A stretch of DNA of 64,000 nucleotides from Bacillota bacterium. Its GTDB lineage: Bacteria; Bacillota; Sulfobacillia; JAUYEG01. Positions 39,441-44,131 of the stretch are shown one piece after another. The notes under the pieces were generated by a model. It searched no databases and was not told the DNA's origin. It worked only from the letters and a program-made list of their open reading frames with translations. The position numbers and the translations under genes were made by a program. The stretch is taken from assembly GCA_030691505.1 (NCBI GenBank), contig JAUYEG010000100.1, positions 4,538-68,537 on the forward strand, in the 5' to 3' direction. Every line of letters starts with the position of its first letter. The first letter of the stretch is position 1.

Positions 39441-39527
39441 CGCGGCGGCGGGGCTGTGGGCCGGCCGGCCACCGGTCGACTGGGCAACCGGGCGTGGGTC
39501 TTATCTCAGGAACGGGGGTGTACGCAT

Positions 39528-40925
39528 TTGAGCAGCAAATTTGATGTTCTGTTTCGTGGCGCGACGGTTGTTGACCCGGTGCACCGGGTCAACTCGCGGC
39601 TGGACATAGGTGTCCAGAACGGCAAGGTGGTCGAGCTCGGCCCGGCCCTCTCCGGGGCCCAGGCGGACAGCGTAATAGACCTCAGCGGCTACACGGTGAT
39701 GCCGGGGGTGATCGACACTCACACCCATGTACGGGGGCCCGCACAGCGGATGATGGCCCTGGCCGGTGTGTGCACGGCTCTGGATATGGGCGACATGCGC
39801 GGCGTGCTGCAGGAGCTGCCCGAGTGGGGCTGTGGCCTCAACATCGCCGGACTGCAGGGCATCGGGCACTGGCCCAATGAGCCACCCTCCAGGGGTGAGG
39901 TCGCTTCCCTGATCGACGCCGCCATGGCCGACGGGGCGATCGGCATCAAGATCGTCGGCGGGCACCGGCCCAGCACCCCGGAGGCGACGGCGTTGATGAT
40001 CGACCAGGCAAACCTGGCGGGTGTCTATGTCGCGTTCCACGTCGGAACCACGGCGACGGCGAGCAACCTCCCCGGGCTGCTTGAGGCTGTGGAGCTGGCC
40101 GGGGACAACTGCCTGCACATTGCGCACGTCAACAGCTACCTGCGCGGCATGGACCGTGACCCGGTCGATGAAACTCTGGTGGGTCTTGCGGCCATCGGGG
40201 GACGCAACAATCTGGTGTCCGAATCGTACCTCGCGGTCATCAACGGCACCGGTGGACAGATCGGACCGGACGGGCTGCCCACCAGCCACGTCACGCGCAA
40301 CTGCCTTAAGCTGCGGGGCTACTCGCCTGACGAAAAGGGCATGGAGGCCGCCATCCGTGACGGCTACTGCCTGGTGAAGGTCACCGAGGGCGGCGTGACC
40401 GCAATCTATACCGGCGAGCCCGGCGTCGCCCTGTGGCGTTCAATGGGGACCAACGCGCCGGTGAGCTTCCCGGTCAACCAGCCCCAGGCGACGTTCCTGT
40501 GCGCGGTGCGCAAGGACGGCGAGGGCCGCTTCGTGGTCGATGCGATAGCAACCGACGGCGGCTCGACGCCGCGCAACGTGGCCGTCGAGTACGGCCTGTG
40601 CCTGGTACGGTACCAGGCGCTGACGCTCAACGAGTTTGTCCTCAAGACCTCCACGGTGGGCGCCGCGATGCTCGGGCTCAGGAACAAGGGCCACCTCGGC
40701 GCCGGCGCCGATGCGGACCTGACGGTGCTGGATATGGACAAGGGGATAGCCGCCATGACAGTCGTGGGCGGCAAGGTCGTGATGGCCGACGGAATCCTTC
40801 ACGGCAGCGGCGGGACGATCATCACGACCCCTCGCGGCGAGTCCCGCGTACGCGAGATGGGATACCGGTATCAGATCGTGCATCCCGAGGAGATGCTGCT
40901 CTACACGAAGCAGCGGCAGGGCTGA
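39528..40925 (+). CDS. Metal-dependent amidohydrolase (dihydroorotase-like fold, substrate unknown)
   Basis: PGVIDTHTH, GIKIVGGH, AFHVG, HIAHVNSY, ATDGG, KGHLGAGADADLTV. Confidence 0.85.
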   Translation: MSSKFDVLFRGATVVDPVHRVNSRLDIGVQNGKVVELGPALSGAQADSVIDLSGYTVMPGVIDTHTHVRGPAQRMMALAGVCTALDMGDMRGVLQELPEWGCGLNIAGLQGIGHWPNEPPSRGEVASLIDAAMADGAIGIKIVGGHRPSTPEATALMIDQANLAGVYVAFHVGTTATASNLPGLLEAVELAGDNCLHIAHVNSYLRGMDRDPVDETLVGLAAIGGRNNLVSESYLAVINGTGGQIGPDGLPTSHVTRNCLKLRGYSPDEKGMEAAIRDGYCLVKVTEGGVTAIYTGEPGVALWRSMGTNAPVSFPVNQPQATFLCAVRKDGEGRFVVDAIATDGGSTPRNVAVEYGLCLVRYQALTLNEFVLKTSTVGAAMLGLRNKGHLGAGADADLTVLDMDKGIAAMTVVGGKVVMADGILHGSGGTIITTPRGESRVREMGYRYQIVHPEEMLLYTKQRQG

Positions 40926-40953
40926 CAGGCGACCATCGGAGGGCGGAGGGGAC

Positions 40954-41165
40954 TCAGTTCACGTCTCCGAAAGCCTCCAGATCCGTGTCCACGTGGTCGC
41001 GGAGGAGCCGTAGGCAGTTGTCCCGGCAGATCTGTCTCGTCAGCGCCTCATCGGACCCGAAACGCCTGAACGCACAATGGCATCGGCGAAGGAGAAGTCG
41101 GGATAGTCGCTGACCCAACAGAGGCGGTCAGCCAGCCGTTCGAATAGACCTGTTGGAACTGGTGG
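40954..41165 (-). pseudogene. Frameshifted C-terminal fragment resembling an amidohydrolase_2 protein
   Basis: Manual translation: LFERLADRLCWVSDYPDFSFADAI / frameshift / AFRRFGSDEALTRQICRDNCLRLLRDHV...*; resembles DRLLFGSDYP...NAxRLL. Confidence 0.5.
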
Positions 41166-41275
41166 CTATTGCTCCGCGTACGGCGTGGTCGCTCTGATTG
41201 ACGCCAAAGGGCGCACCATTCACACTCACAGGCAACAAAAGCCGGAGTGATTGCCCTCACGCCGGACTGCCCGGC

Positions 41276-41450
41276 CCTGTAACCGTAGCGTAGTACCCAC
41301 CCTCGCTCCCGAGGTGTAACCGTGCTTCCCGCCCCGGACCCCAAGGTGTAACTGTAGTACTCACCACGGCTTAGGGTGTAACCGTAGTACCCACGCCCAA
41401 CCTCAGCATGTAACCGTGCTACTCACCTCCGCCGCAAAGGTGTAACCGTG
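41276..41450. repeat. Array of six ~21-bp repeats (GGTGTAACCGTRSTACYCACC) at ~32-bp period with 9-11-bp variable linkers
   Basis: TGTAAC cores at 41278, 41315, 41347, 41377, 41409, 41441. Confidence 0.9.
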
Positions 41451-41487
41451 GCGGGCGACCTCCGGTGAACTTGCCCGCGGCAGCCCC

Positions 41488-43272
41488 TCACGCCGGCCGC
41501 CCGACCCGCTTGAACTGCACCTCGTACAGCCTGGCGTAGAGCCCTCCCCGGGCCAGCAGCTCCTCGTGCGTGCCCGTGGCGGCCAGCCGCCCCTCGTCGA
41601 GGACGAGAATCAGGTCCGCCCCAATCACGGTCGACAGCCGGTGGGCGATGACGAACGTCGTCCGCCCCACCAACAGGCGGTCGAGCGCCTCGCAGATCAG
41701 CTGCTCGGACTCGGAATCCTGGAACGCGGTCGCCTCGTCCAGCACCAGCAGCGCCGGATTTTTGAGGATCGCCCGGGCGATCGCGATGCGCTGCTTCTGG
41801 CCGCCCGACAGCTTGACCCCACGCTCCCCGATTTCCGTGTCGAAACCTTTGGGCAGCTTGACGATGAACTCCTCGGCGTTGGCCATCCGCGCCGCCTCGG
41901 CGATCTCCTCCGGCGTCGCGTCAAGGCGGCCGTAGCGGATGTTCTCGCTGACAGTGCCGCTGAAAAGCGTCGGCTCCTGCAGCACCATCCCGATCTGGCT
42001 GCGCAGAAACCCGAGATCGAGATGGCCGACGTCCACCCCGTCGAGCAGGATCCGTCCCTCCTGCGGATCATAAAAGCGCGCCAGCAGGTGCACCAGCGTG
42101 GTCTTGCCCGCGCCCGACGGTCCGACCAGAGCCACGCGCCGGCCGGCCGCGGCGGTGAAGCTCACCCCGGATAGGGCCCACCGGTTTGCCGGAGCATAGC
42201 GTAAGCAGACCCCCTCGAACTCGACGCTGCCTTTGGTCGCGGGCAATGTGAGATGGCCGGCGCTGGTTTCGGCGGGCGTGTCCAGCACCTCGAAAATCCG
42301 GTCCAGTCCGGCCAGCCCGGTCTGGAGGATGCCGCCGAACATGACCACCGACCGCATCGGACCGACCATCATCCTCAGGTAGAGCAGCGTCGCGGTCAGC
42401 ACCCCGAGCGACAGACGGCCCTGCAGGATGAGATACCCGCCGCCGGCCAGGACCGCCACCAGGGCCAGGTTGGCGAGAAAGTCAACCTCGCACTCCATCA
42501 CACCCAGGCGCCCCCTCCGGAACAGGTTGAGCCGCCGGTACTCCAGGCTGCGCCCCCGGAGCTTGTCCTCCTCGTGCTTTTCGTTAGTGAACGCCTTTAC
42601 CGCGCGCACCGAGCCCAGCATCTCTGAAGCCGTACCCGAGACCAGCGAAAGGGCTGCCTGGATGCTCCGGCTGATCGCCCTTATCCTGTCGCTCTGCCGG
42701 TAGAAAAGGGCGAAGCTGGCCCCCACCAGCACGGTCATCGCCATGCCGAGCGCCGGGTTCATGGCGATGACGATCGCCGCGATCGCCACAACCTGCAGCG
42801 TCTCACCCAGCAGGCGCGAGGAGACAGTCAGGACTAGGGTTTCGAGCGAGTTGACGTCGCCGATCAGGCGCGACAGGGTCGCCCCGGTCAGGTGCGATTC
42901 GAAGTACGGGAGAGGGAGTCGGAGGATGTGCCGGTACAGAGCCAGGCGAACATCGAGGATCACATTCTGCATGACTATGAACACGGTGTACATGTTGCCG
43001 TAGTACAGCAGGGATTTGAGCCCGAAGAACACCGTCGCCCCGGCGGCGCCCAGCCAGAGTAGCCGGTAGTCGGCCTGCGGCAGGATATGGTCGACCAGAA
43101 TCCGGGTCATCTGCGGCACGCTGATCGCCATCACGCTGTAGGCCAGGTTTAACACCACGGCCGTGGCCACGAGCCGCCTGTGCGGTGCAAGGTAGACAAG
43201 AAAGCGCTTGATCGAAGCCCGGCCGGTGCGTGCCTTGGCGGCGGCGGGCGCGGCTGAAGGGGGTCCTGACAC
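41488..43272 (-). CDS. ABC exporter, fused permease/ATPase (MsbA/Sav1866-like)
   Basis: TM domain; GPSGAGKT, LSGGQKQR, LVLDEAT, IAHRLST. Confidence 0.95.
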   Translation of the reverse strand: MSGPPSAAPAAAKARTGRASIKRFLVYLAPHRRLVATAVVLNLAYSVMAISVPQMTRILVDHILPQADYRLLWLGAAGATVFFGLKSLLYYGNMYTVFIVMQNVILDVRLALYRHILRLPLPYFESHLTGATLSRLIGDVNSLETLVLTVSSRLLGETLQVVAIAAIVIAMNPALGMAMTVLVGASFALFYRQSDRIRAISRSIQAALSLVSGTASEMLGSVRAVKAFTNEKHEEDKLRGRSLEYRRLNLFRRGRLGVMECEVDFLANLALVAVLAGGGYLILQGRLSLGVLTATLLYLRMMVGPMRSVVMFGGILQTGLAGLDRIFEVLDTPAETSAGHLTLPATKGSVEFEGVCLRYAPANRWALSGVSFTAAAGRRVALVGPSGAGKTTLVHLLARFYDPQEGRILLDGVDVGHLDLGFLRSQIGMVLQEPTLFSGTVSENIRYGRLDATPEEIAEAARMANAEEFIVKLPKGFDTEIGERGVKLSGGQKQRIAIARAILKNPALLVLDEATAFQDSESEQLICEALDRLLVGRTTFVIAHRLSTVIGADLILVLDEGRLAATGTHEELLARGGLYARLYEVQFKRVGRPA

Positions 43273-43358
43273 GGCGGTTCCTCCTCGTGTCTCGTTTCCG
43301 ATATGTGCTTACTGCATATAAGAGGCGTATTCCTCTATTGTTGTGCATGTGGCGTGGC

Positions 43359-43388
43359 TTGCATCGTTCCATGCCGGGGTGGTAAACT
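43359..43388 (+). promoter_or_regulatory. Putative sigma-A promoter of pyr operon
   Basis: TTGCAT-18-TAAACT with extended TG. Confidence 0.55.
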
Positions 43389-43412
43389 GAACCCGGCCAA
43401 AACCCCGGGCCA

Positions 43413-43517
43413 GACCTTTAAGCTAGTTCGGCGAGGCTAGCAAGGAGCGATACCGGTGCAGGCATGTTTGCGCAAAGACAGAGACCCCTGTCCATCCCGG
43501 CAGGGGTCTCTTTTGTT
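43413..43517 (+). promoter_or_regulatory. PyrR-binding attenuator leader with terminator
   Basis: ACCTTTAA-GCT-AGTTCGGCGAGGCT-AGC-AAGG binding loop; hairpin AGAGACCCCTG...CAGGGGTCTCT-TTTGTT (43480-43517); directly upstream of pyrR. Confidence 0.9.
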
Positions 43518-43541
43518 GTGCCTGCCGGCCGGACGAGCTAG

Positions 43542-44131
<590 letters not shown>

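Follow-up and report, generated by a model that had tools for sequence, protein, structure and literature searches.

A strain-variable array of six phased repeats behind an ABC exporter gene: a candidate gene-less mobile repeat element

What kind of element is an array of six regularly spaced repeats that begins just past the stop codon of an ABC exporter gene? The host is an uncultured, high-GC, spore-former-like groundwater bacterium, and the window, by which we mean the whole 64,000-nt stretch of DNA analyzed here, is core chromosome carrying the dcw cluster, ftsZ, sigE/sigG, and pyr genes. The initial annotation had left the choice among a phased protein-binding array (iteron-, centromere-, or transposon-end-like), a recombination-site array, and a small-RNA array, and had named the locus as its best candidate for an undescribed system. 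We therefore asked how the array is built, whether it varies in nature, and what it shares with other repeats.

Architecture and setting of the array

Reading the sequence letter by letter, we found six direct units with the core TGTAACYGT, all on the + strand, at 41276–41450. The cores start at 41278, 41315, 41347, 41377, 41409, and 41441, giving spacings of 37, 32, 30, 32, and 32 bp, the first of which is 32 bp plus a 5-bp CGTAG duplication within unit 1. Allowing one mismatch, the pattern GTGTAACCGT matched seven times in the window, six times inside the array, against a mean of 1.43 in shuffled sequences, none of which reached seven (0/100); the 21-mer consensus at up to three mismatches matched twice in the window vs. 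never in 100 shuffles. Over the five complete modules, the 21-bp heads were 78% identical pairwise (163/210) and the linkers of 9–11 bp 41% (42/102), 32% being expected at random given the linker composition. Core positions, shuffle controls, and head-versus-linker identity thus bore out the repeat array with 37/32/30/32/32 spacing that had first been described. Units 1–3 and units 4–6 furthermore form a 94-bp higher-order repeat (72% identity over 67 nt). Tandem Repeats Finder (TRF) did not call the array, even with a minimum score of 30.

The description of the units as quasi-palindromic was upheld in part: GGTG...CACC inverted ends exist, but they comprise 4 bp only and are broken in units 1, 4, and 5, with no compensating changes. 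A seventh, degenerate unit, GGTGAACTTGCCCGC near 41465, may be an inverted head. Compared with a cre/LacI-type operator, only the left half of the head matches. At 10.5 bp per turn, the 32-32-30 spacing arithmetically places heads 2–6 within approximately ±35 degrees of one helical face, and the 5-bp duplication within head 1 shifts that head by half a turn relative to the others. The 94-bp super-unit corresponds to about nine helical turns.

The features are collected in Table 1. The exporter stop codon occupies 41488–41490 with the block directly past it, confirming the 37 bp that had been given between array and stop. Open reading frames overlapping the array have a GC3 of 0.62, compared with 0.84–0.87 in real genes, in agreement with a non-coding array. 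A Pfam search of the 64 ORFs of the 64-kb window found no cas, rep, par, plasmid, recombinase, or transposase gene, as had been stated for cas, rep, par, and recombinase genes, and no regulator gene adjoining the array among the window ORFs. The 54-aa ORF beside the array (40954–41118, − strand) was considered as a gene and rejected; it has no Pfam family, a GC3 of 0.69, and no homologue among proteins of 29–95 residues, and is probably not a gene. The single metagenome orthologue of the exporter (L164, 71% identical) has a different gene downstream and no array after its stop, and the best relatives apart from it are at most 41% identical.

Table 1. Features of the array locus (positions in the window)
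Feature	Position	Strand	Remark
Amidohydrolase gene, convergent with exporter	39456..40925	+	stop 340 bp left of block
12-bp direct repeat CCCTCACGCCGG, left copy	41254..41265	.	100% identity; target duplication or att core
Inserted block containing whole array, 219 bp	41266..41484	+	present or absent in natural populations
Head 1, ccTGTAACCGTAG[CGTAG]TACCCACC	41276..41301	+	5-bp duplication inside
Head 2, GGTGTAACCGTGCTTCCCGCC	41313..41333	+	
Head 3, GGTGTAACTGTAGTACTCACC	41345..41365	+	
Head 4, GGTGTAACCGTAGTACCCACG	41375..41395	+	
Head 5, CATGTAACCGTGCTACTCACC	41407..41427	+	
Head 6, left half GGTGTAACCGTG	41439..41459	+	left half retained; right half diverged
Right block end, possible imperfect inverted copy of left end and head 1	41449..41484	-	25/36 positions align (weak)
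12-bp direct repeat, right copy	41485..41496	.	exporter's last two codons and stop
ABC exporter, transmembrane domain and ATPase, 594 aa	41488..43272	-	PF00664, PF00005

Presence and absence of the block in natural populations

In X1 and X2, public groundwater runs that belong to separate studies, Logan contigs joined 41253 to 41485, skipping exactly 231 bp. The 12 letters at the joint fit either side, and this empty site has one copy of the 12-mer. The joints come from contig alignment at 80% likeness, a setting prone to false joints, and their short side has just 18 unambiguous letters in X1 and 30 in X2, with zero other letters in both contigs. In X1, the depth was 21.3 for the joined contig, 7.5 for the array contig, and 30.6–32.4 for the flanks, the two forms together roughly equaling the flanks; the joined contig of X2 had a depth of 8.07. 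The empty allele was the majority form in both runs. X1 was otherwise without difference over 39900–41265, and X2 also holds a second, diverged strain, such that alleles are not assignable to strains there.

Array-bearing contigs were present in four runs (X1, X2, X4, and X6), the best of which may be the sample from which the genome was assembled. The array was letter-identical in three runs and differed at two letters in the fourth, one of which is listed (41287 A>G), uncovered parts of the stretch in X2, X4, and X6 being left out of the comparison. Only zero or six units were seen in this small sample of four runs, with no copy-number variants. The array is thus the body of a strain-variable block that some cells carry and others lack. 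Variation of linkers between strains with persistence of the repeats, as might have been expected from the initial annotation, was not seen in the four runs; the presence of the whole block varies instead.

At random placements, a flanking repeat of at least 12 bp occurred in 15 of 3000 and 1 of 3000 trials (0.03–0.5%). Beyond the 12-mer, the block showed no similarity to its native flanks (p 0.4–0.98, ten comparisons) and was therefore not built from local sequence. A derivation of the heads from the exporter 3′ end (TGAAC/TGTAAC likeness, region after the 12-mer) was ruled out on the same values (p 0.4–0.98). A block for which filled and empty forms persist against one identical background cannot have diverged in place. 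Because the right 12-mer copy holds the last two codons and stop of the exporter, the block leaves the protein unaltered. The two block ends align in inverted orientation from nucleotide 2 of both, weakly (local score 19, shuffle p = 0.085), and judged from this alignment, the right end may be a terminal inverted repeat partner. From these data, we infer an insertion rather than a precise excision or deletion.

A unique head on a common plan

The head was found nowhere else in its own genome by pattern search, blastn-short, or nhmmer with a head profile, nor was a second copy of the 219-bp block found there. It was also absent from 209 genomes of the class and 400 of the phylum, and had no match in 72,556 plasmid records or in phages. 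A two-unit pattern gave no matches in JGI metagenomes, and two patterns gave 0 and 0 matches in IMG/VR, both being collections from which records close to this genome may be missing. A three-core pattern hit at least 119 stretches in a 185,579-species genome set; among the parsed matches listed, these were unrelated tandem repeats, none sharing the right half of the head, and many had periods that are multiples of 3. The 9-mer core occurs nine further times in the genome, dispersed and never at a transposase locus. Within the contig, no inverted set of heads was found, the sole reverse match being at chance level.

The genome does contain other arrays on the same plan, namely a head of ~21 bp with a free linker of ~10 bp, modules of 32-32-30 bp, and six heads, with unrelated head sequences. 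The family A head, aCCTGCTy-N6-rAGCAGGt, forms six-head arrays at at least 12 loci. Ten of the arrays have at least five detected heads, and nine of these ten combine a third interval of 29–30 bp with intervals of 31–32 bp elsewhere. Stems and spacing are kept at these loci, loops and linkers are not conserved between copies, and the heads are good hairpins. The family B head, ATTGTGCGCCAGAGCTCAAT, is arranged in 32/32/30 modules within a 94-bp unit, of which contig C40 has three identical copies. The present array, at 37 (32+5)/32/30/32/32, follows the plan of both families, including the shortened third interval. Of 17 arrays, nine lie between convergent genes and seven between tandem genes, giving 16 that are faced by a gene 3′ end; the remaining one is ambiguous divergent. 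The 33 ORFs flanking the other arrays include no recurrent neighbour and are unrelated housekeeping genes. Furthermore, the family A pattern had 21 matches in this genome vs. at most five in any one of the 209 other class genomes.

As an example, the family A array upstream of valS (G000 C67:93638-93810) similarly has six units at 32-32-29/30-32-32, about the same total length, and an intergenic, lineage-specific location at a gene 3′ end. It differs in its unrelated head, a true palindrome found at at least 12 loci, whereas the present head is barely palindromic and unique. Local alignment against shuffles found no sequence homology of heads or linkers between the six-unit array and families A and B (p 0.07–0.96). 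Flanking repeats of 16 family A and B arrays were none above chance (at most 8 bp), such that the 12-bp repeat belongs to this array only and the duplication is not a shown class property. The array is an atypical representative of a class of intergenic arrays spread across the genome, several of which share its plan, and the suggestion of an undescribed system standing on its own was not sustained.

We then compared the array with known systems. CRISPR loci have spacers of ~26–72 bp between repeats of 21–48 bp; here, the linkers are 9–11 bp and Pfam found no cas family among the 64 window ORFs, in line with the earlier exclusion of CRISPR. The tandem units of E. coli BIME-2 measure ~96–98 bp. 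Like REPs and BIMEs, the arrays are short, species-specific extragenic repeats in regularly spaced clusters in gene 3′ regions, without genes of their own, with several head families per genome and a ~94-bp super-unit open to tandem amplification (family B, C40). The differences are that the present head forms no stable stem-loop (4-bp ends, fold z −0.8 and −0.56), that a super-unit has three heads rather than two, and that this 96%-complete genome yielded no REP-associated tyrosine transposase (RAYT, PF01797). REPs are palindromic hairpins with more than 100 copies per genome and alternate in orientation inside BIMEs (PMC2817692); in contrast, the six heads here are in one place, all direct on the + strand, and regularly spaced.

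The likeness to MITEs lies in a small (219 bp), gene-less, discrete presence/absence block flanked by a 12-bp direct target duplication, with the empty site seen in two runs, and in the DDE_Tnp_1 transposases of the genome; the ends may in addition be imperfectly inverted, though weakly so (p 0.085). Among MITEs, exemplified by the IS231-derived MIC231 cassettes of Bacillus cereus, the block would be unusual in its single copy, in having no parent IS with the same ends found, and in a body of six direct subterminal repeats instead of unique sequence. In the F-plasmid sopC centromere, a 43-bp repeat that contains a protein-binding motif occurs 12 times in tandem. Iterons and sopC share with the array direct, protein-site-like repeats of ~20 bp, phased at whole helical turns with less conserved DNA between; however, the present block is dispensable and core chromosomal, the 64-kb window lacks rep, par, and plasmid genes, and no plasmid or phage matched. 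The MIRU-VNTR loci of Mycobacterium, which are bacterial minisatellites, are likewise strain-variable and intergenic, with tandem units a few tens of bp long whose families are scattered over one genome, but here the variation is all-or-none, linkers are unrelated while heads are kept, and TRF is silent. Tn7- or Mu-type ends differ by the absence of an inverted site set within the contig and of a transposase gene in the window.

Origin of the block and its significance

Because the block is strain-variable and its plan is common to several intergenic arrays, we read it as a small gene-less mobile repeat element, most likely a non-autonomous, lineage-specific repeat element resembling MITEs and BIMEs, whose heads are protein recognition sites. 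Specifically, we propose with a probability of roughly 0.55 that a gene-less 219-bp insertion landed exactly at the exporter stop codon and duplicated 12 bp of its target, that it is a class member by architecture, and that its heads are bound in trans. The block, still polymorphic in natural populations, would belong by architecture, not sequence, to the lineage-specific modular intergenic repeat arrays. Its two 94-bp super-units of 32-32-30 modules would present six heads on roughly one helical face, most likely as putative recognition sites. The protein acting on them in trans could be a host DNA-binding protein or else the transposase or recombinase by which such blocks are moved, and the linkers would be unconstrained. 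A dedicated host function need not be supposed; at most, the exporter would gain a longer 3′ untranslated region. Several observations speak against this reading: no second head copy appeared in any search, which is odd for a mobile element, and the tie to families A and B lies in architecture without sequence homology. The lack of above-chance flanking repeats at the 16 family A and B arrays, the weak terminal inverted repeat, the distance of the heads from any transposase gene, the negative RAYT search, and the short unambiguous side of the X1 joint count against it as well. Among the earlier suggestions, phased recognition sites tied to mobile DNA are thus what stands of the protein-binding, transposon-end-like, and recombination-site array. 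The iteron or centromere branch fell away on the core chromosomal location and the lack of rep, par, and recombinase genes in the window.

Enzymes that could act on the block in trans are encoded in the genome, with seven DDE_Tnp_1 transposase matches above the Pfam cut-off (eight at E ≤ 0.001) and five tyrosine recombinases. Elements of the IS4/IS231 type make duplications of 10–13 bp. No head lay near any of the seven DDE_Tnp_1 genes examined, the transposase regions shared no sequence with each other, and no parent IS with ends matching the block was found at the seven loci; similarly, none of the five tyrosine recombinases was linked to the head. A search for RAYT (PF01797) gave no match at E ≤ 0.01 in the genome, whose completeness is 95.9%, the control being positive in 6 of 14 known genomes. 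In the same community, a 1154-bp contig (C115) encodes a small tyrosine recombinase that is immediately preceded by a phased 36-bp array. A broader proposal, which we put forward tentatively as doubtful, is an undescribed kind of gene-less element: a six-head phased array with at least three, perhaps five, head families (A, B, and the present one; candidates D and E), each with its own trans-acting recombinase or transposase wrapping ~190 bp, and with this copy as a clean 219-bp indel that has a 12-bp target duplication at a stop codon. The body of such an element would differ both from paired inverted ends and from a lone hairpin.

Other explanations have to be weighed against a mobile repeat element. 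The conserved heads with drifting linkers, the 32-32-30 spacing that keeps heads 2–6 on one face, the stems and spacing of family A kept at at least 12 loci with free loops and linkers, and the location at gene 3′ ends would also suit a host-used array, in which a DNA-binding protein coats ~190 bp on one face as an insulator or terminator between convergent genes or as a chromosome-structuring site, with families A, B, and C bound by related proteins. We consider this unlikely, as the block is dispensable with the empty allele in the majority in X1 and X2, the 71% orthologous locus has no array, none of the relatives has the head, the phase of head 1 is off by half a turn, no regulator gene adjoins, and the neighbours of other arrays are unrelated. 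The 12-bp repeat can also be viewed as an att core: a site-specific integrative mini-element (attP-only or CIME-like) would then excise and re-integrate as a 231-bp unit via a tyrosine recombinase encoded elsewhere, the heads being arm-type sites. Many integrases rebuild the 3′ end of their target gene, and the 12-mer does rebuild that of the exporter (two codons and stop), leaving the gene intact. In X1, filled and empty forms occur side by side with no other difference between them, the unit is close in size to lambda attP (~240 bp), and five tyrosine recombinases in the genome and the array–recombinase pairing of C115 fit as well. Nevertheless, no recombinase is linked to this head, the six heads point in the same direction and evenly fill the unit, the repeat shows no core-type inverted sites, and flanking repeats above chance are missing from the family A and B arrays; a circular junction was not seen in the contigs, which cannot show rare forms. 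An integrative element accordingly seems quite improbable to us.

A decaying minisatellite, grown in place by tandem duplication and lost by slippage between chance 12-mers to give the empty form, was what the initial annotation would have concluded from a lack of other copies or of a conserved gene association, together with a lack of transcription or binding. Copies of this head sequence are indeed lacking, as is an associated gene; the 94-bp higher-order repeat suggests that three units were duplicated together, and the 5-bp internal duplication is slippage at this locus. A minisatellite is still very unlikely because of the clean indel with its 12-bp duplication, the random linkers vs. conserved heads, and the shared module plan: decay is non-uniform (heads 78% alike, linkers 41%, random 32%), TRF is silent, a perfect 12-mer brackets the array exactly (chance 0.03–0.5%), variation is all-or-none with no intermediate copy number seen, the plan matches unrelated multi-copy families, and the flanks show no similarity. 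Finally, the array might act as RNA, within the exporter 3′ UTR or separately, with the motif ACGGUUACA on the exporter strand titrating an RNA-binding protein or yielding ~32-nt RNAs. It starts 37 nt past the stop with no terminator between by consensus scan, and family A heads are good hairpins. Against this, the fold of each strand is no more stable than that of shuffled sequence (z −0.8 and −0.56), three of six units have an interrupted 4-bp GGTG/CACC stem, Rfam is empty in the array up to E = 10, and helical phasing points to DNA. The 11 runs listed with matches include no RNA dataset. We regard an RNA role as highly improbable, and the small-RNA array suggested initially was abandoned on the fold scores and the lack of an Rfam match. 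Hairpin and terminator readings were ruled out by the fold z-scores and the terminator scan.

By itself, the array changes nothing for the neighbouring genes, the exporter protein being identical either way. Its value is that of a dated example, an insertion or precise loss for which a natural population still holds both alleles and of which both junctions are located to the exact base. It also carries a warning for annotation, as arrays of repeats and linkers built in this way can look like iterons or mini-CRISPRs. Viewed alongside the multi-copy families, it suggests that the REP-like arrays of this lineage share one set plan, in phase with the helix, and travel as entire six-head blocks. 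A protein that reads the heads, if found, could explain how repeats spread in bacteria that lack RAYT.

Structure and setting of the array

The six-unit array reported at 41276-41450 in the initial annotation was read in the sequence as claimed. Its units are spaced by 37, 32, 30, 32, and 32 bp, where the 37-bp first interval is 32 bp plus a duplication of CGTAG within unit 1. With at most one mismatch, GTGTAACCGT matched seven times in the 64-kb window, six of them within the array; shuffles gave 1.43 matches on average, and 0/100 reached seven. Pairwise identity across the five complete modules was 78% for the 21-bp heads (163/210) and 41% for the linkers (42/102); the C-rich linker composition gives a chance identity of 32%. 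The heads are under constraint and the linkers free, a plan common to the multi-copy arrays of the source genome. Tandem Repeats Finder missed the array even with a minimum score of 30, and a repeat search found a higher-order repeat of 67 nt at an offset of 94 (three units; 72% identity). As for the units being quasi-palindromic, the GGTG...CACC ends exist, with nothing more, and are broken in 3/6 units.

Two convergent genes enclose the array in a gap of ~562 bp. ORFs overlapping it had a GC3 of 0.62, compared to 0.84-0.87 for real genes here, and a consensus scan of 40700-41700 detected neither promoter nor terminator. The window is core chromosome from an assembly of 2.88 Mb (177 contigs, 95.9% completeness), and carries mraZ-mraW-ftsI-murE-murF-ftsW-murG, ftsZ, divIVA, spoIIGA-sigE-sigG, spoIIR, lspA, priA, def, fmt, pyrR-pyrB-pyrC-pyrD, and genes for a ribonucleotide reductase and a pseudouridine synthase. 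The 64 kb yielded no gene for a transposase or recombinase and no rep, par, or cas gene. Since these context genes are absent and the linkers are too short, the array is not an iteron, a centromere, or a CRISPR; the first two had been suggested initially, and the dismissal of CRISPR was upheld.

The exporter is a lone gene in the window (region 43272-43569 was listed alongside); the best-matching exporters of relatives are adjacent pairs, e.g., in genome G011 (C21:156004-157689 and 157772-159514). It is grouped with genes for an M81/MlrC peptidase and two amidohydrolases, and the group is flanked by the pseudouridine synthase gene on one side and pyrR on the other. A 54-codon ORF in the gap had gene-like GC1/GC2 (0.67/0.45) and a low GC3 (0.69), and had neither a Pfam family nor, in a set of 29-95-residue proteins, a homologue; by these measures it is probably not a gene.

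Locations of the array, its surroundings, and other repeats in the source genome (window positions unless a contig, C, is named; L, locus)
Feature	Location	Strand
Amidohydrolase gene, left of gap	39456-40925	+
Palindrome CTGCTCTACACGAAGCAG	40896-40913 (C74:45433)	
54-codon ORF	40954-41118	-
12-bp direct repeat, left copy	41254-41265	
219-bp block	41266-41484	
Core TGTAACYGT	41278, 41315, 41347, 41377, 41409, 41441	+
12-bp direct repeat, right copy	41485-41496	
ABC exporter gene, right of gap	41488-43272	-
Family A loci (L213-L224)	C44:42929, C48:24029, C49:2397, C53:9778, C67:93638, C70:5579, C81:978, C131:15398, C146:33761, C152:8734, C162:6461, C171:11939	
Family B, tandem copies (L226)	C40:6918-7199	
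Family B, further sites	C28:593-736 (L225), C47:7478-7590 (L228), C136:11206-11305 (L227)	
Candidate family D (L229)	C160:1866-2050	
Candidate family E (L230)	C67:77890-78190	
36-bp periods	C115:1-902	
Short tandem repeats, periods 11, 13, 10 bp	C95:13246-13360, C44:44364-44460, C106:8750-8815	

Presence and absence of the block in groundwater

A perfect 12-nt direct repeat, CCCTCACGCCGG, stands with one copy on each side of the array. Random 175-bp segments of the source genome carried flanking direct repeats of at least 12 bp in 15/3000 and 1/3000 cases (two tests). The exporter's stop and its final two codons fall within the 12-mer, and the exporter protein is therefore identical with the block (filled form) and without it (empty form). 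Beyond the 12-mer, no similarity to the native flanks was found for the block (p 0.42 and 0.85) or for single heads (p 0.39-0.98). The block ends form a weak, imperfect inverted repeat (25/36 positions from nt 2 of both ends; shuffle p = 0.085).

Part of the ~561-bp gap was present in eight public runs from five studies; where labelled, these were groundwater or subsurface metagenomes, and 0/8 were recorded as RNA. Alleles were compared over 39900-42600 using Logan contigs from four runs, each belonging to a different study (X1, X2, X4, and X6), that is, assembled contigs and not reads, placed at 80% likeness, a setting that carries a warning of false joints; the best-matching run is possibly the sample from which the source genome was assembled. 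One contig in X1 and one in X2 joined 41253 straight to 41485. The skipped 231 bp correspond precisely to the 219 bp enclosed by the repeat together with one of its 12-bp copies, and 12 letters at the joint are compatible with either side; its short side comprises 18 letters plus the 12 shared in X1 and 30 letters in X2. In X1, the depths of the empty-form contig (21.3) and the array contig (7.5; 41236-41374, no other letters) add up to roughly those of the flanking contigs (32.4 and 30.6), and no further difference was listed across 39900-41265. In X2, the corresponding depths were 8.07 and 2.5 (41318-41468); this run contains a second, diverged strain (other letters 6.2 of 9.5 at ~40238-40283), and the alleles are not assignable to strains. 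X4 (41241-41400, no other letters) and X6 (41140-41345, two other letters, one of them A>G at 41287) showed the array form only, each at a depth of 2-3. Neither unit copy-number nor linker variants occurred among the contigs of the four runs, which gives no support for linkers that vary between strains while repeats persist, a check suggested in the initial annotation.

The data show a gene-less 219-bp block that sits at a stop codon, with 12 bp of target duplicated, and is present or absent in nature. Its heads have diverged by 22% and its linkers show random identity, yet the background in which it is polymorphic is identical elsewhere; such a block cannot have diverged in place, and it came in, or goes out, as a finished unit.

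Arrays of the same plan in the source genome

The search for further head arrays in this and related genomes yielded no second copy in the sets covered. In the source genome, a pattern search matched only the four best heads of the array, an nhmmer head profile matched the array alone, and blastn-short with the block found no second copy (next match, 16 nt); the 9-mer core had nine further, dispersed occurrences. Head matches stayed at control level in 60 relatives, numbered at most two each at one mismatch in all 209 other class genomes, and were absent as exact matches from 400 genomes sampled across the phylum; JGI metagenomes, IMG/VR (two patterns, 0 and 0), plasmids, and phages gave no match. 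A scan of all species genomes gave, among the matches listed, unrelated repeats and is uninformative on the head's absence. The relatives are distant, with 41% identity for the closest exporter match among the genomes compared; a metagenome contig (L164) with a 71% exporter orthologue had no array past its stop and a different downstream gene.

Other heads in the source genome follow the same plan. Family A (aCCTGCTy-N6-rAGCAGGt) forms six-hairpin arrays at at least 12 intergenic loci, with intervals of 31-32, 31-32, 29-30, 31-32, and 31-32 bp in 9/10 arrays having at least five detected heads. Alignment of 12 copies showed that stems and spacing are kept, and loops and linkers differ. The strict palindrome occurs 21 times in the source genome and at most five times in each of the 209 other class genomes (once in the only same-family one). 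A palindrome of this type also lies in the final codons of the amidohydrolase gene, just before the stop, where it could be a chance match or a head taken up by the coding sequence. Family B (ATTGTGCGCCAGAGCTCAAT, both orientations) has modules of 32, 32, and 30 bp, making a 94-bp unit, and was recently amplified, given three identical tandem copies on C40. Several copies lie at contig ends, which suggests that they break the assembly. A genome scan at lags of 86-101 recovered the six-unit array (61% at lag 94) together with two arrays that are candidate families D and E of the same class; their super-period is 92-94 bp, and their palindromic heads are ~CATCTGTGCAAAAATGCACAGATG and ~GTTCTCA-N6-TGAGAAC.

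The six-unit array, 32(+5)/32/30/32/32, equals families A and B in unit count, module lengths, and short-module position. No sequence homology was detected between the array and A, the array and B, or A and B, whereas A-A and B-B comparisons scored far above shuffles. Around 17 arrays, crude ORF calls gave nine convergent, seven tandem, and one divergent (ambiguous) gene pairs; therefore, a gene 3' end faces the array in 16/17. The 33 flanking ORFs were unrelated housekeeping genes, among which no mobile gene recurred, and direct repeats longer than 8 bp flanked 0/16 family A/B arrays, those up to 8 bp being at chance level.

Contig C115 (1154 bp, lower G+C) carries at least seven 36-bp periods, CGAGCC-N9-GAGgAAACCA-N8-GAG, in which conserved blocks alternate with variable 8-9-mers; they abut a small tyrosine recombinase gene at its start, and this gene contains an inserted segment that is Cys-rich and zinc-ribbon-like. 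The contig resembles a piece of a small plasmid or virus that bears an iteron-like array. The near-perfect short tandem repeats, in G+C-rich intergenic or gene-end DNA, are ordinary and microsatellite-like, unlike the modular arrays.

Origin and possible working of the block

We favor, with a probability of about 0.55, a non-autonomous mobile or repeat element that inserted in a transposition-like manner and whose heads are read in trans. The block would have entered at the exporter stop codon with a 12-bp target duplication, and a protein acting in trans would recognize its heads. At 94 bp, which makes 8.95 helical turns of 10.5 bp, the 32-32-30 rhythm would hold heads 2-6 within ~35 degrees of one helical face. 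Such phasing points to protein assembly on DNA, not RNA; a binding array used by the host itself is an unlikely reading. IS4/IS231-type DDE transposases generate duplications of 10-13 bp, and many integrases reconstitute the target gene's 3' end. Either route would fit; we rank transposition-like insertion first and regard a site-specific mini-element as distinctly unlikely. As candidate enzymes, the source genome encodes five tyrosine recombinases and has seven DDE_Tnp_1 matches above the Pfam cut-off (eight at E<=0.001), with no array heads at its transposase loci. Against a mobile element stand the singleton head, the purely architectural class link to A and B, the other arrays without a 12-bp duplication, and the lack of an enzyme linked to the block.

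An origin as a local minisatellite is improbable, since divergence is non-uniform between heads and linkers and variation is all-or-none. For the same reasons the array is not an ordinary VNTR; the finding holds, and the structure goes beyond that of a minisatellite. Least credible is an RNA element, including the small-RNA array proposed at the outset: the array strands fold no better than shuffles (z -0.82 and -0.56), Rfam up to E 10 gave nothing in the array, and the helical phasing of the heads favors protein on DNA.

In working, the array is most like REP/BIME clusters and MITEs, yet it departs from the defining features of each. REP/BIMEs, as defined in PMC2817692, are palindromic, high-copy, alternating units with a RAYT. 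By that definition, the array differs in being neither palindromic, high-copy, nor alternating, and no Y1/RAYT transposase was found in the source genome. Compared to MITEs, the block is single-copy with a weak inverted repeat, and the search gave no parent IS.

We know of no description of 32-32-30 arrays and do not claim the plan as undescribed. That the block represents a new type of mobile element, with an array body and family-specific heads, is possible but doubtful. The array, once singled out as a candidate undescribed system, is not isolated; it is a unique-head member of a lineage-specific class of phased intergenic arrays, to which architecture links it, apparently caught as a segregating insertion.
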